A stretch of DNA of 64,000 nucleotides from Gammaproteobacteria bacterium (GCA_965222155.1 CBDCTH010000004.1:448001-512000), one strand, 5' to 3'; positions 23 through 43,466 are shown, numbered from the stretch's first letter. A program made the numbers and translations. Notes: generated by a model from the letters alone, not told the origin.

Positions 23-1009
23 TTAGCAGTACTTGTTGTCCCGGAACCAGTCTATTGCGTCTTCTATGGCCTTGCGGGCGGGGCGGGGGTGGTAGTCGAG
101 GGTTTGTTTTGCCAGGGTGGAGGAGAAATACATGTGTTTTTTTGCCATGTTTACGCTGTCCACCGTTGTAAACGGTTCTTTTTTGCTGATCAGCGCCCAT
201 TTTTCGGCCAGCCAGGCGATGGGGTAGACGGCGTTGTGGGGTAGTCTCACTTTTGGGGGTGGCAGGTTTGCGTAGTCGCAGATGATACCCAGGATGGTTT
301 TCAGTGACATGTCTTCCCCGCCCAGGATGTAGCGGTTGCCCGGTTCGCCCCGGTCAAACGCCTGCAGGTGGCCTTTTGCCACGTCGTCTACGTGCGCTAT
401 GTTCAATCCTGTGTCCACGTAGGCCGGGATTTTCCTTTTCAACGTATCGACGATGATCCGGCCGGTGGGTGTCGGCTTGATGTCGCGCGGACCGATCGGT
501 GTGGACGGGTTGACGATGACGATGGGCAGCCCTTGTTCTTCGACCAGTTCCCGGACTGCCTGCTCGGCCAGGTATTTGGAGCGCTTGTAGTGGCCGACCA
601 TGTCTTCCAGGGTGACGGGCGTAGTTTCATCCGCGGGGCTGCGGTCCCGGTTGATGCCCAGAGTTGCCACGCTGCTGGTGTAGACCATTCTGCTGACGCC
701 TGCATCCGCGGCCTGCCGGAACAGGTCCCGGGTGCCGTCAACGTTGGTCCGGTACATGCTTGCCGGGTCGGGTATCCACAGGCGGTAGTCGGCGGCGACG
801 TGGAACAGGTAGTTGCATCCGCTGACGGCCCGTTGCAGCGAGGAGGTGTTGGTCAGGTCGCCTTCAACCAGGGTGACTGCCAGTTGTTCCAGGTTGCGCC
901 GGTCGCTGCCGGGCCTGACCAGGGCCTTCACCTCGTGGCCTTGTTGCAGCAGTTCCCGTACCAGCGCCGACCCGACGAAGCCGTTGGCGCCGGTAATCAG
1001 CGTGGTCAT
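23..1009 (-). CDS. hpnA: Hopanoid-associated NAD-dependent sugar epimerase/dehydratase
   Basis: GANGFVG Rossmann motif, FHVAADYRLW and YKRSK (YxxxK) typical of HpnA; hopanoid gene context. Confidence 0.88.
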   Translation of the reverse strand: MTTLITGANGFVGSALVRELLQQGHEVKALVRPGSDRRNLEQLAVTLVEGDLTNTSSLQRAVSGCNYLFHVAADYRLWIPDPASMYRTNVDGTRDLFRQAADAGVSRMVYTSSVATLGINRDRSPADETTPVTLEDMVGHYKRSKYLAEQAVRELVEEQGLPIVIVNPSTPIGPRDIKPTPTGRIIVDTLKRKIPAYVDTGLNIAHVDDVAKGHLQAFDRGEPGNRYILGGEDMSLKTILGIICDYANLPPPKVRLPHNAVYPIAWLAEKWALISKKEPFTTVDSVNMAKKHMYFSSTLAKQTLDYHPRPARKAIEDAIDWFRDNKYC

Positions 1010-1605
1010 TTACGGTTAAGCCTGAGGTAGTCGCGCAGGGTCCACAATGCAAACGCGGGCGCGCCGATTGCGGCCACGATGAGGAACGGTTGCAGCACAT
1101 CAAAAAACGTGATCAGCGGCAGCAGGTAGAAGACGTCTTCGATCTCGAACAGCCCGATATTGGGTTGATCGATTTGCTCTTTGCCCGCCATGTTGCTGAT
1201 CATCAGGCGCAACTGGAAAATGGCGGCCACCGACACGCCGGCGAATATCCCCATGGGTAGCGCCCAGGCGCCCAGGGGGCCGTGCATCAGGCAGATGCCT
1301 ATGCCTATGAAGAGCAGGATATCGACGACGGCGTCGCTGGCGAGGTCGTAGTAATGTCCGAACTTGCTCGTCTTGCCGGTGATCCTGGCCAGTTCTCCGT
1401 CGGTGTGGTCGAGGAAGTTGGAAAGGGCAAAGCACAGCGCGCCGGCGTTGACCAGGTTCGTCTCACCAGTGCTGATCAGTACGCAGGCGATTACGCCAGC
1501 AAGCAGTCGCGCCGTCGTAAGGTGGTTGGGCGTAATCGCAGAATCCCGCAAAGGATTAACAAGTCTGGCAGCCAGTCTGGCGTCAAGCGGTTTATTTTCC
1601 GGCAT
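1006..1605 (-). CDS. CDP-alcohol phosphatidyltransferase family membrane protein
   Basis: TPNHLT and DHTDGELAR..GKTSKFGHYYDLASD signature; 4-nt overlap with hpnA start. Confidence 0.9.
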   Translation of the reverse strand: MPENKPLDARLAARLVNPLRDSAITPNHLTTARLLAGVIACVLISTGETNLVNAGALCFALSNFLDHTDGELARITGKTSKFGHYYDLASDAVVDILLFIGIGICLMHGPLGAWALPMGIFAGVSVAAIFQLRLMISNMAGKEQIDQPNIGLFEIEDVFYLLPLITFFDVLQPFLIVAAIGAPAFALWTLRDYLRLNRK

Positions 1606-1684
1606 GGGGTTAATTCAGGGCTGCTTCCATAACCGTGCAAATTATATCGGCAAAATATACCTGTGCCACCCTTTTATTCTTCAT

Positions 1685-1985
1685 AGGTTAATTCAGGAAG
1701 GTTAATTCAGGACACCCATAAATTAGCAGGAGGTTAATCCAGGACACCCATCCATTAAGGACATTAATCTAGAAAAATTTGGGACACCAGAAAAATTTGG
1801 GACACCCATAAATTGATCGATAACCGAATTTTTATGGGTGTCCCAAATTGAGTCCAGAACATCAACCAATTTATGGGTGTCCCAAATTGAGTCCCATCAA
1901 TTCATGGGTGTCCCAAATTTACTTCCCAAATTTATGGGTGTCCTGAATTAAGAAGGTCGATTCAGGGGAGGTCAATTCAGAAATC
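1685..1985. repeat. Cluster of REP-like family A repeats (aatttatgggtgtcccaaatt) in both orientations
   Basis: About 9 copies of gggtgtcc/ggacaccc cores; same family at ~1-12, 5694-5786, 7815-8013, 9214-9352, 10734-10775. Confidence 0.85.
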
Positions 1986-2027
1986 AGACTGGATACCAGG
2001 TCAAGCCCGGCGTGACGGCAAAGACTG

Positions 2028-40809: not shown

Positions 40810-40910
40810 ATTTTTCTGTTTCAGCCGATGCAGAGTAATGACAGGATAGAGTTGCTGCTACAGCCTATCCAAACCTGTCTCTCCGGAACTGCATTAACCA
40901 TTATTAAAGA

Positions 40911-42530
40911 TCAATCAGTAGTAAAATCACCGGCCCTGTCTATATCATTGACGCTGTTCACGTCCAGCCAGTGGCCGTTTATGTAGTGGACGGTGATGGT
41001 CCTGCCTTGCCCGGTCAGGTGGTTGAGCAGGTCGGGCAGGGTCAGTTGATCAAAGCCGGGCTGGTTTTCCAGGGAATCCAGCGCCTGTTCCAGCCATTTC
41101 CTCCCTTCTGCCCTGACCCGCATCATGCCTGTCCAGCGACCGGAGGGGGGGTCAGCTTCGGGGGTTTTTTGTTCCGAGATGCGTTGCAGCTTGACCTTCT
41201 GCATGAACATGGAGCGGTCATCGGGTTTATCGCACCAGGCATAGTCCGGGGTGCCGGTGATCTCAATCTCGTCAACCAGGGAGTCGACGACAATGACTAT
41301 TTCACCGTCCCGTTCCAGCAGGTCCTGCAGGATATACGACCGGAACAGGAGATCGCCGTAGGTGATCACCATATCGTCGTTGAATTTATCCCTGGCGCAG
41401 GCCAGTGAATAGAGTTCACCCGTGGTTTCATAGGCAGTATTCAGGCGCATATCGACGCCGCTGACGTCCAGCGTTTCCGACTTGTACCCGGCAATGACCG
41501 TGATATCGTTGACGGCGCGTTTTCTGAACTCATCAACCAGTCTTTGCAGCAAAGGTTTGCCGCGTATATTCAGCATCGCCTTGGGCCGGTCTTCGGTCAG
41601 ATCATACAAGTTGTTGCCGCGGCTCGCCGCCAGTACCAGTGCGCGGCATTGTCCGGGTGTGTTCAGGTAACGTTCCTGCGCCCGCAGCAATTCGTCCGCG
41701 CCCTGCAGAATGAAAATGCTGTCGACGCTGGTGATGCGGTCTTCGACGCCGGTCAATGTTTCCTGTTCGAAAATTTCCCTGCTTACGTTTTCCATGGCCC
41801 TGACTGACGCGCGGATCATGTGGTTGGCCCAGATAACCAGGCTGATCCCGGCTTTCCTGAATACGTCTACGGGTGTGCTGTAGTATTTTGTCGGTACGAT
41901 TATCAGGGGGCAGGCGCCGTCCCATTCCCTGGCGAAGGCGATGATTTCATCCGGGCGTGATTGCCTGCTGTGTATCAGGATGGCATCGGCCCCGGCTGCG
42001 CAATAAGCCTCGGCCCGTTTCAGTGCCTCATCCATGCCCCAGCCCGCGATCAATGCCTCCACCCGCGCAATAATACAAAAATCAGGGTCTTGCCGGCTGT
42101 CCTTACCTGCCCGGATCTTGCCGCAAAATTCATTGGTATCGGCCAGGGCCTGTTTCTCGCTGTCTATGAAGCTGTTGGTCTTGGGGAATTCCTTGTCTTC
42201 TATACAGACCCCGGCTATGCCGCGTTGTTCGAGTTTTCTGACCAGGCGCCGCATATTATTGAAGTTGCCGTAACCGGTATCGCCATCCAGCAGGATCGGG
42301 ATATCCGTGGCGTCGGACATGAATTCCAGCATGTCGACGACCTGGGTCCAGCTTGCCTCATTACTGTCCCTGACGCAGAACTGGGCCGACATGGCCAGGC
42401 CGCTGGCCCAGATCCCCTTGAACCCTGCCTGCTGCACGAGTTTGGCCGAGATGCCGTTATGGGCTTCCAGCATGAACTCCAGTTCGGGAGATTCGAGCAG
42501 GTCGCGTAATTGTCTGCTTTTAGCCCGCAT
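40911..42530 (-). CDS. pepM: Phosphoenolpyruvate mutase fused to a C-terminal NTP-transferase
   Basis: EAHNG.SA, DGDTGYG, diagnostic [11 protein letters not shown]-terminal LAASRG...LT.DRPK.M domain. Confidence 0.95.
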
Positions 42531-42731
42531 TACTCACCACCAGGGGTATATTTTCTATCTCCAGGGTATCCTTGAACAGGTATGAATCTACCGGATCGTA
42601 CAGGTATATCTGCCTGTCCTGTTCCGGTTTGATTGAACACAGCTCGGGATAACTGCCTGTATTTATACTATTTCGGGCAGTTGACTGCCTGAATTTTACT
42701 GATTTCCGATAATTTATGTAAGGGACAGGCA

Positions 42732-43466
42732 TTATTTTGCTTTGAACATCTGTGCCGCGCGTTCCGCGTCGGCGGGAAAATCTATCTCGATCCAGTCCCG
42801 GCCGGTGATATCCTCAAATTGGAACAGACCCGGCGTTTCCCTGAGCAGGTCACGGATCGCATCTTCGTAGGGTTCGTCGGCGCGGTTATTCTCGAGGTAT
42901 TCTCCCGTCTTGTGAGCGAGGCGCGCCGATACGGCGGCGTCGAAACGGAAAAAGCCCACTGATTCGCCCTGGTAATCCCAGGTTATATTCGTATCGGGTA
43001 TTTTTCTGAACTCCACCAGCGTATTGCCTGCTACGCATAGTTTTACCGGCTCATCGCCGGGTTCGAAATCCCGATCCAGCAGGAAGCAATTGCCGTACTG
43101 CGTCCTGAACAGGCTGCCAAGGACCTCCGGGTCATACAGCACGTCGGCATCCATCAATATACTGTCTGCCCCGTCGGTCAAAAAATCATATGCGCAATGC
43201 AGGCTCACGACGCTGCCCGCTTCATAGTCCGGATTGACGATGGTTTCGACGGACGCACGACTTTCGACCTGTTCCAGCGCCGCTTCGATTTGATCGTGAC
43301 GGTAACCCGTAACGATGATTATCCGGTCCGTACCCAGGTCATTCAGGATTTCCATGTGCCGCTGCAGCAGGGATTTACCACCGAACTGCAACAAGCATTT
43401 CGGCCGGCCCGCGGCAACGTCCCCCAGACGGTTTCCGCGGCCTGCGGCGAGGATTATTGCTTTCAT
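42732..43466 (-). CDS. Phosphocholine/phosphonate cytidylyltransferase-like NTP-transferase
   Basis: ILAAGRG.RL, PKCLL, DAD, GESVG, W.EIDF..D. Confidence 0.85.
   Translation of the reverse strand: MKAIILAAGRGNRLGDVAAGRPKCLLQFGGKSLLQRHMEILNDLGTDRIIIVTGYRHDQIEAALEQVESRASVETIVNPDYEAGSVVSLHCAYDFLTDGADSILMDADVLYDPEVLGSLFRTQYGNCFLLDRDFEPGDEPVKLCVAGNTLVEFRKIPDTNITWDYQGESVGFFRFDAAVSARLAHKTGEYLENNRADEPYEDAIRDLLRETPGLFQFEDITGRDWIEIDFPADAERAAQMFKAK

Follow-up and report, generated by a model that had tools for sequence, protein, structure and literature searches.

Hopanoid and phosphonate genes in the window

We analysed a stretch of 64,000 nucleotides from a Gammaproteobacteria bacterium (GCA_965222155.1, CBDCTH010000004.1:448001-512000), referred to in its whole length as the window, in which genes for phosphonate biosynthesis lie among hopanoid (hpn) genes. 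An earlier note on this DNA had proposed that the two gene sets are interleaved and that a phosphonate headgroup might be placed on a hopanoid. The open reading frames (ORFs) were listed and scanned with Pfam and NCBIfam profiles, with motif checks on selected proteins, and all the genes named in that note were found where it had put them. The phosphonate genes fall at 1006-9003 and 39640-43466, two blocks 30 kb apart, each among hpn genes. Both gene sets do occur in two blocks, as the note had it, but the blocks are parted by 24 kb (9.4-33.3 kb) of unrelated genes, including those for an amidohydrolase, a TonB receptor, an oxoprolinase, ArgRS, malate synthase and others. Our analysis showed that the phosphonate module is a rearranged (split) member of a known, chemically uncharacterised gene family, the Group 1 phosphonolipid clusters, and that its weave with hopanoid genes is conserved, far more widely than the single published remark on Roseomonas suggests.

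The first block (block A) lies on the minus strand throughout. It contains hpnA (23-1009; TIGR03466 499.3 bits, cut-off 367.65), a hopanoid-associated short-chain dehydrogenase/reductase ('sugar epimerase') whose nearest named relatives in the NCBIfam scan are the lipid keto-reductases and decarboxylases SdmB and OleD. In order of position it is followed by the gene of a cytidine diphosphate (CDP)-alcohol phosphotransferase (CDPOH; 1006-1605; PF01066 52.8 bits) of 199 amino acids with about six transmembrane (TM) helices, by hpnN (2028-4700; TIGR03480 944 bits, cut-off 752), an RND/MMPL hopanoid exporter gene, and by a dioxygenase gene (4876-5616). The remaining genes of the block are those for an hpnG-like nucleoside phosphorylase (adenosylhopane to ribosylhopane; 5864-6604; TIGR03468 152.3 bits, under the cut-off of 187.1; PF01048 93.9 bits), a squalene synthase of the SQS_PSY family (SQS; 6740-7762; PF00494 190 bits; TIGR01559 119.7 bits, under the cut-off) and HpnL (8023-9003; TIGR03476 213.2 bits, cut-off 195.65), a membrane protein of the MprF/LPG-synthase-TM type and putative flippase. 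No hpnI, hpnJ or hpnK was found in the window, the remaining genome not having been searched for them, and a search for RNA sequencing runs matching window positions 1-9100 returned no match.

The gene between hpnG and hpnN had been called a PhnY-like dioxygenase in the earlier note. A dioxygenase gene does lie there, but the name has to be changed, as the product resembles the 2-oxoglutarate (2OG) dioxygenase PhnY* and not the aldehyde dehydrogenase PhnY. It is a 2OG/Fe(II) dioxygenase of the PhyH fold (PF05721 81 bits) and a putative C1-hydroxylase of 2-aminoethylphosphonate (AEP). Its top NCBIfam match is the PhnY*-type methylphosphonate hydroxylase NF052437 (194.6 bits, E = 2e-57), under the cut-off of 500; it may at best be PhnY*-like in function and is not an equivalog of that family. 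In an alignment with ectoine hydroxylase 4mhr, its H116-x-D118 and H192 fall on the H, D and H that we take to be the iron ligands. The PhyH fold is shared with the phosphonate alpha-hydroxylases PhnY* and FzmG, whereas the context here is biosynthetic and not catabolic.

The second block (block B) is on the minus strand except for dxs. It starts with genes for an MlaA/VacJ-like outer-membrane lipoprotein (33375-34151; PF04333 238 bits) and the MlaC-like periplasmic lipid carrier HpnM (34194-34805; TIGR03481 175.3 bits, cut-off 160.1), followed by hpnB for a GT2 glycosyltransferase (35000-36124; TIGR03469 368.7 bits, slightly under the cut-off of 379.25) and hpnH for the radical-SAM adenosylhopane synthase (36124-37278; TIGR03470 559.5 bits, cut-off 225). 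The gene of the first enzyme of the methylerythritol phosphate (MEP) isoprenoid pathway, dxs, comes next on the plus strand (37550-39409; TIGR00204 870 bits). The phosphonate genes proper are ppd for phosphonopyruvate decarboxylase (39640-40809; TIGR03297 433.9 bits, cut-off 312.5) and, after a gap of 101 nt, the gene of a phosphoenolpyruvate (PEP) mutase (PepM) fused to a LicC/PntC-type cytidylyltransferase (40911-42530; TIGR02320 401.5 bits, cut-off 319.55; PF12804 on residues 297-414). The PepM motif EDKxxxxxNS is present, beginning at residue 111, and the C-terminal domain has LicC (1jyk, E = 7.6e-13) as its closest solved relative. A second, free-standing PntC-like cytidylyltransferase (NT2) is encoded at 42732-43466 (PF12804 67 bits). 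Its closest solved relative is 6pd1 (E = 1.4e-10), a nucleotidyltransferase/class-V aminotransferase chain which we take to be the structure of the AEP-specific PntC of PMC6697681, with LicC second, and in the NCBIfam scan NT2 also resembles sugar-1-phosphate and inositol-1-phosphate nucleotidyltransferases (NTases).

Neither an AEP transaminase (AEPT) nor a squalene-hopene cyclase (shc) was found in the window by the profile scans. The transaminase step had been left out of the pathway in the earlier note, although it is needed. A PhnW-type transaminase was found on contig C12 of the same assembly (469.6 bits, cut-off 400.8), beside an Nramp-type transporter gene, and shc is on the same contig (753.6 bits). 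With hpnH and hpnG, the C35 hopanoid set is present in the genome, hpnG being the hpnG-like gene that scores under its cut-off and shc lying outside the window.

The CDP-alcohol phosphotransferase and its occurrence with hopanoid genes

The catalytic motif of CDP-alcohol phosphotransferases, D-x2-DG-x2-AR-x8-G-x3-D-x3-D, is complete in CDPOH (residues 66-91), and D66, D69, G70, A73, R74, G83 and D87 are invariant in 17 homologues. The hydropathy scan showed several TM segments. The closest solved relatives are IPCT/DIPPS (4mnd) and AF2299 (4o6m), and a profile match was found to archaetidylinositol-phosphate synthase; CDPOH shares with these enzymes the full motif and the small multi-TM architecture. 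However, these matches are weak (30-60 bits, far under every equivalog cut-off), and therefore donor and acceptor are not predictable from them.

The set of genes in the window has been described before. In the text of Li & Horsman (2022, PMC8942020), a 'Burkholderiales_CDP-OH' group of 318 ppm neighbourhoods, 36% of their RefSeq set and its most abundant family, is treated as identical with the Group 1 phosphonolipids (Yu et al. 2013). Li & Horsman count seven genes in its core, namely a Ppm-PntC fusion, Ppd, AEPT, a 2OG/Fe oxygenase, a further PntC and two genes termed 'phospholipid'; 1-hydroxy-AEP is the predicted product, and according to that text no phosphonolipid has been characterised from the group and the lipid has never been isolated. 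The same gene set, with one gene labelled hpnL, appears in the legend of Fig. 7 of a Nostoc paper (PMC5987646). The window genes match this core, which indicates that the module is of a known kind: the window has Ppm::PF12804, Ppd, the 2OG/Fe oxygenase, the second PntC, the CDP-OH transferase and the HpnL-type membrane gene, with AEPT elsewhere in the genome. Its PepM is 59-61% identical to those of Cupriavidus, Mycetohabitans and B. cenocepacia, its NT2 is 45-47% identical to the core NTase of the same three, and its CDPOH is 51-54% identical to the core transferase of Cupriavidus, Mycetohabitans and Burkholderia over 98-99% of the length. A core gene described as 'phospholipid' proved to be of the HpnL family (TIGR03476 329.8 bits in Mycetohabitans and 259.6 bits in Roseomonas, cut-off 195.65). 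In the transferase tree, used solely to show that subclades exist (its backbone is unresolved and the long branch G209 joins the outgroup), the window CDPOH belongs to the same family as that of the core, in a sister subclade.

The differences from the published core are in arrangement and in one enzyme. The core genes are contiguous, whereas the window copy is split into two blocks with AEPT on another contig; AEPT sits in the core, is unlinked to the module in 5/5 single-contig congeners and is beside ppd in other genera. The oxygenase of the window is of the PhyH/PhnY* type, whereas the gene in the same position of the Mycetohabitans core gave no tblastn match and only a faint NCBIfam halogenase match. 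A fused Ppm-NTase with a second NTase nearby is also among the patterns described for PntC/LicC activation of AEP (Rice et al. 2019, PMC6697681). In the systems presented in that article the downstream transferase is LicD-like or unknown, whereas the window has a CDP-alcohol phosphotransferase, and the likeness of the window NTases to PntC is at the family level (PF12804, 6pd1, 1jyk).

The link to hopanoid genes begins with hpnA. In the window the TGA stop of CDPOH overlaps the ATG of hpnA by 4 nt, and of 17 loci from two classes, the window counted among them, 13 have this overlap, with start codons chosen by script. Among 32 CDPOH-positive genomes, 14 have hpnA directly beside CDPOH. A complex prediction for HpnA and CDPOH (alignments A2 and A1) gave a score of 0.00, which is evidence in neither direction. 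Two or three CDPOH paralogues of different subclades, one beside hpnA and another beside HpnL or NT2, are present in G029, G051, G134 and G165 and in loci L056 and L059, which hints at more than one acceptor or donor.

We then examined the neighbourhood of these genes in relatives, since a linkage not kept in relatives was among the findings that, by the earlier note, would have refuted its proposal. Of 22 other genomes of the genus, 21 have the fused PepM, and it was also found in 11 of the 14 other genera that belong to the family. At 19 PepM loci from the genus and family, ppd is adjacent in all 19, NT2 in 17, dxs in 15 and hpnH in 12; a class-V aminotransferase follows ppd in G025, G029, G033 and G036. 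On the NT2 side of the window module is a glucose-6-phosphate isomerase (PGI) gene (43463-45250), whose stop overlaps the NT2 start by 4 nt, and PGI is on that side in 14/19 of the relatives' loci. Inserts of 4-6 kb between ppd and pepM or dxs were seen in two congeners (G004 and G009; L034:5551-9227 and L036:11708-16055). They were considered as possible carriers of AEPT and rejected, as they contain a Dam-type methylase or GmrSD/AAA/DUF6884 restriction/defence-like genes; their flanks are intact, which indicates that the locus tolerates insertions.

In other families the two blocks of the window are united. A genome of another family (G050) has the single array MlaA-hpnM-hpnB-hpnH-dxs-ppd-pepM-NT2-hpnL-hpnA-hpnN-PhnY*-hpnG-shc. 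The arrays SQS-shc-hpnG-hpnN-CDPOH-hpnA-hpnL'-NT2-pepM-ppd-AEPT-dxs and hpnH-dxs-AEPT-ppd-pepM-NT2-hpnA-PhnY*-hpnG-SQS were found in G395 and G239, respectively, and those of G337, G165, G134, G051 and G400 resemble this weave. The hpnH of G395 (C31:59428-60383) reads in two pieces, with an internal TGA and TAA, and may be a pseudogene or a sequencing error.

The linkage was also found outside the Gammaproteobacteria. Four records labelled 'MAG: Alphaproteobacteria bacterium' (MAG, metagenome-assembled genome) carry a CDPOH at 42-44% identity, and all four have shc. The order is hpnN-NT2-CDPOH-hpnA in three of them, two with pepM, hpnH and shc nearby, and CDPOH-NT2-AEPT-ppd-pepM-PhnY*-...-ispG in the fourth. 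Named cultured carriers were drawn from a plasmid collection. Plasmid p1318-3 of Roseomonas marmotae has hpnA-GT-hpnC-hpnD-hpnE-shc-hpnG-hpnH-ispH-CDPOH-AEPT-HpnL-aepY-aepX-PntC (GT, glycosyltransferase), followed by MMPL and VacJ genes. On plasmid pBRH01 of Mycetohabitans rhizoxinica the order is CDPOH-oxygenase-HpnL-PntC-aepX-aepY-AEPT-dxs-...-MMPL-HpnM-like-ispH, and the distance between CDPOH and shc is about 19 kb.

A linkage of shc to pepM in some Roseomonas species, with the suggestion of an 'undiscovered terpene-phosphonate', has been reported in a study on genome mining of Acetobacteraceae (PMC8776678), and the R. marmotae plasmid confirms that hopanoid and phosphonate genes are joined there in one cluster, as in the window. 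The Roseomonas transferase is 42% identical to the window CDPOH and belongs to another subclade. The passage on this cluster in PMC8776678 notes the linkage only, with no transferase named, no phyletic test and no link to Group 1; in the main texts of the literature searched it was the sole instance found of a connection between the module and hopanoids. The earlier note had stated that no characterised pathway of this kind was known. This holds insofar as the Group 1 core is chemically uncharacterised, but the gene set itself had already been described (PMC8942020) and the link of shc to pepM was in print for Roseomonas (PMC8776678).

A metagenome scan, with a query built from 8 of 17 alignment rows, retained 80 loci at 49-64% identity, 43 of them at least 9 kb long. 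Among these 43, hopanoid-specific genes were found in 16, pepM/ppd in 20, both in 5 and neither in 12, and an HpnL-like gene in 25. Where the neighbour could be counted, hpnA lies directly downstream of CDPOH in 10/54 loci and directly upstream in 10/46. Conservation of the linkage therefore reaches from the genus and its family to other gammaproteobacterial families, and the linkage is shared by alphaproteobacterial MAGs, Roseomonas, Mycetohabitans and metagenome contigs; its recurrence in distant relatives across classes excludes a chance co-location.

The phyletic profiles were determined in one sample of 400-401 Gammaproteobacteria genomes, with matching handles across searches. CDPOH homologues (E<=1e-15) were found in 28/400 genomes, shc (E<=1e-60) in 67/401 and PepM in 41/400. 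The 28 CDPOH-positive genomes are spread over 17 GTDB families. All but one of them have shc, the exception (G167, 62% complete) retaining hpnH and hpnA, and all but one have PepM, the exception being 75% complete (G046). CDPOH was present in 26 of 28 genomes positive for both PepM and shc, versus 1 of 13 that were PepM-positive and shc-negative (Fisher p = 1.4e-7, with kinship ignored). The shc-negative genome G419 has PepM, Ppd, AEPT and a PhnY*-like gene side by side, without CDPOH. HpnL was found in 25 of the 28 PepM-positive, shc-positive genomes.

A PhnY*-like gene was found in 19 of 32 CDPOH-positive genomes. All 17 genomes of the class sample with a homologue of it (at least 48% identity) have PepM, and 16 of the 17 have shc, the exception again being G419. 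A role of this gene as a hopanoid hydroxylase was considered and rejected, as the gene tracks PepM, never occurs in shc-positive, PepM-negative genomes, and lies beside PepM in the shc-negative G419.

These counts include four genomes flagged as unpublished (G075, G177, G331 and G343). Without them there are 24 CDPOH-positive genomes, 23 with shc and 23 with PepM; CDPOH is present in 22/24 and HpnL in 21/24 of the PepM-positive, shc-positive genomes. Among CDPOH-positive genomes the PhnY*-like gene is then found in 19/28, hpnA beside CDPOH in 13/28 and hpnH in 25/28.

Other genes and features of the window

Beyond block B, a gene of serine palmitoyltransferase (Spt; 55017-56198; NF047599 616 bits, cut-off 500) lies 11.5 kb from the phosphonate module. 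It opens a sphingolipid gene set (55017-63136) of Spt, an acyl carrier protein (ACP), a short-chain dehydrogenase/reductase and a fatty acyl-AMP ligase, followed by two more nucleoside triphosphate (NTP) transferase genes. Past the end of the window (L018:3546-5665), beyond LptF/G, there are genes for a 386-amino-acid CDP-OH transferase and a Tam41-like protein. This region may encode a pathway of its own that puts a phospho-headgroup on ceramide. Of 31 other CDPOH-positive genomes, 3 have an Spt over the cut-off (3/27 without the unpublished ones) and 2 more have partial matches, and none was found in two 100%-complete members of the same family.

Beyond PGI is a pair of glycosyltransferase-like genes of the TIGR04283/TIGR04282 'arsenosugar biosynthesis' type (46312-47581), each over its cut-off, and the pair is kept beside PGI in several congeners. 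Between the two blocks there is a tandem array (20301-22044) of 7-9 copies that repeat about every 218 nt, mostly 95-99% alike, each with a palindromic core of 29-34 nt. The GC fraction is 0.44 in the 2-kb bin that covers the bulk of the array, versus about 0.55 nearby. No ORF of at least 100 amino acids was found between 20301 and 21962 and no Rfam match in the array region, the Rfam scan of the window yielding one tRNA and nothing else. A Fic/DOC-domain gene overlapping an HTH_3 gene (25017-26077) forms a toxin-antitoxin-like pair that adjoins a LysR regulator.

The proposed acceptor of the phosphonyl group

The route set out in the earlier note, from PepM through Ppd and cytidylyl activation to a CDP-alcohol-type transfer to a lipid hydroxyl, holds together once the transaminase is added. 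PepM would convert PEP to phosphonopyruvate and Ppd would convert this to phosphonoacetaldehyde, from which the unlinked PhnW-type transaminase would make AEP. The PhnY*-like dioxygenase may optionally hydroxylate C1 of AEP to give 1-hydroxy-AEP, and NT2, the cytidylyltransferase domain fused to PepM, or both would form the cytidine monophosphate (CMP)-phosphonate. For the phosphonyl transfer, CDPOH would use as acceptor a hydroxyl in the side chain of a C35 bacteriohopanepolyol, itself the product of Shc, HpnH, HpnG and perhaps HpnA. The resulting lipid would be flipped by HpnL and exported by way of HpnN, HpnM and MlaA. Every chemical step of this scheme, the acceptor above all, is predicted from the genes. 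The calculated [M+H]+ values are 654.4857 for bacteriohopanetetrol-AEP and 670.4806 for bacteriohopanetetrol-1-hydroxy-AEP. The composite hopanoids of HpnI/J/K(/L), bacteriohopanetetrol-glucosamine and the cyclitol ether, share the idea of a polar, amine-bearing headgroup placed on the bacteriohopanetetrol side chain by genes of the hpn cluster; in those the tailoring is a glycosyl transfer, whereas a phosphonyl transfer is proposed here. In B. cenocepacia, hpnL is described as travelling with hpnIJK (PMC5472815).

We give about an even chance to the transfer of CMP-(1-hydroxy-)AEP to a bacteriohopanepolyol. Three points favour this acceptor: CDPOH is restricted to genomes that have hopanoid genes, a restriction which the genes for making AEP do not show; it is translationally coupled to hpnA; and an HpnL-family protein accompanies it, the 'stand-alone' cores included.

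Several observations weigh against a hopanoid acceptor. Both shc and AEPT are on another contig of a 12-contig assembly with 7.3% estimated contamination, for which reason congeners were checked, and both genes were found, unlinked to pepM, in 5/5 single-contig genomes of the same genus. In B. cenocepacia and Cupriavidus no hpn gene other than the HpnL of the seven-gene core itself lies in the 15 kb to each side of that core; shc is 1.9 Mb from the core on the Burkholderia replicon and is not in the Cupriavidus megaplasmid record. No hopanoid-specific gene was found in 27 of the 43 long metagenome loci. The sampled genomes belong to one class and are related, and thus the phyletic association overstates their independence. 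HpnL was rejected as a phosphonate-specific gene, since it also occurs in 18/39 shc-positive, PepM-negative genomes. Among shc-positive genomes hpnH is found in 29/32 with the transferase versus 34/38 without it; being near-universal there, it does not discriminate. In the literature searched, no phosphorus-bearing hopanoid and no supporting chemistry were found. A hopanoid acceptor is a well-supported hypothesis, yet unproven.

The strongest competitor, although we consider it rather unlikely, is a glycerophosphonolipid, with CDPOH putting the headgroup of CMP-(H)AEP on diacylglycerol. Instead of a covalent attachment, the link to hopanoid genes would reflect co-regulation, common export through HpnN/HpnM/MlaA or a role that both lipids share in the outer membrane. 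CDP-alcohol-type enzymes with diacylglycerol as acceptor exist, namely the choline and ethanolamine phosphotransferases. It would also agree with the separation of the core from hpn genes in B. cenocepacia, Cupriavidus and most of the long metagenome loci. Moreover, diacylglycerol bearing 1-hydroxy-AEP and phosphatidylethanolamine would be isomers, which could explain why these lipids have never been seen, with no hopanoid needed. The default label 'Group 1 phosphonolipids' points the same way, the cluster family being filed under phosphonolipids in the texts of PMC8942020 and PMC5987646. However, diacylglycerol is universal, yet CDPOH was found only in genomes with hopanoid genes, and 12 of the 13 PepM-positive, shc-negative genomes, G419 included, are without it. 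The 4-nt overlap with hpnA kept across two classes and the HpnL-family gene of the core also speak against diacylglycerol.

It is improbable that, as in phosphonoglycans, CDPOH adds (H)AEP to a polyprenol-linked glycan, to lipopolysaccharide (LPS)/lipid A or to some other polymer of the envelope. In the account of PMC6697681, the majority of clusters with PntC are believed to tailor cell-surface glycans, and hpnB, a GT2 gene, and the PGI gene are beside the module. But the module has neither a LicD-type transferase nor glycan-assembly genes, CDPOH is of the small 6-TM lipid-enzyme type, and the restriction to genomes with hopanoid genes would be left unexplained.

The polarity of the reaction could also be reversed, which we regard as very improbable: HpnG would give phosphoribosylhopane, NT2 would turn this into a CDP-hopanoid, and CDPOH would use 1-hydroxy-AEP, at its C1 hydroxyl, or another small alcohol as acceptor of the phospho-hopanoid, in the manner of CDP-diacylglycerol enzymes. 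The nearest matches of CDPOH, archaetidylinositol-phosphate synthase and DIPPS, indeed work with a CDP-activated donor and an acceptor that is small and polar, NT2 has its resemblance to sugar-1-phosphate and inositol-1-phosphate NTases, and a PhnY*-type hydroxylation would supply the hydroxyl needed. On the other hand, the closest solved relative of NT2 is 6pd1, presumably an AEP-specific PntC, followed by LicC. The PhnY*-like gene is missing from 13/32 CDPOH-positive genomes, so a hydroxylated acceptor is not obligatory, which counts against this scheme, and we know of no precedent for such a pathway.

The ceramide named as an alternative acceptor in the earlier note, which would be supplied by the Spt-ACP-reductase-ligase cluster at 55-59 kb and would give a sphingophosphonolipid like that of Bacteriovorax stolpii, can practically be set aside, for although the window Spt is over its cut-off and close to the module and 1-hydroxy-AEP sphingolipids are known from Bacteriovorax (text of PMC8942020), Spt is rare among CDPOH-positive genomes and absent from the two complete family members, and the spt region has candidate headgroup genes of its own, the two NTP transferases and the 386-amino-acid CDP-OH transferase.

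With a bacteriohopanepolyol as acceptor, HpnA might, as a speculation, be a ribosylhopane reductase yielding the tetrol. In the wider form of this proposal, whose chances we put a little below even, the whole Group 1 family would make phosphono-hopanoids (bacteriohopanetetrol with AEP or 1-hydroxy-AEP) and not glycerophospholipid analogues; CDPOH would then rank as the first phosphonyltransferase acting on hopanoids, HpnL would flip amine-bearing hopanoids, and HpnA would be the ribosylhopane reductase missing so far, by which the acceptor is supplied.

What is new here is that the core transferase occurs only where hopanoid genes occur in the sampled genomes, is translationally coupled to hpnA and travels with HpnL, and that two orphan problems are thereby joined, the uncharacterised phosphonate core and the orphan hopanoid genes. 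Two hopanoid gene surveys of 2025 (PMC12324291, PMC12583986) list hpnA, hpnB and hpnL as of unknown function, in passages with no words beginning with 'phosphon' or 'CDP'. If diacylglycerol is the acceptor, an obligate functional partnership between phosphonolipid and hopanoids would still be indicated. If the acceptor is a hopanoid, the product would represent a new class of composite hopanoids and a phosphorus- and nitrogen-bearing biomarker precursor resistant to phosphatases, and a large share of the predicted bacterial 'phosphonolipids' would have to be reassigned.

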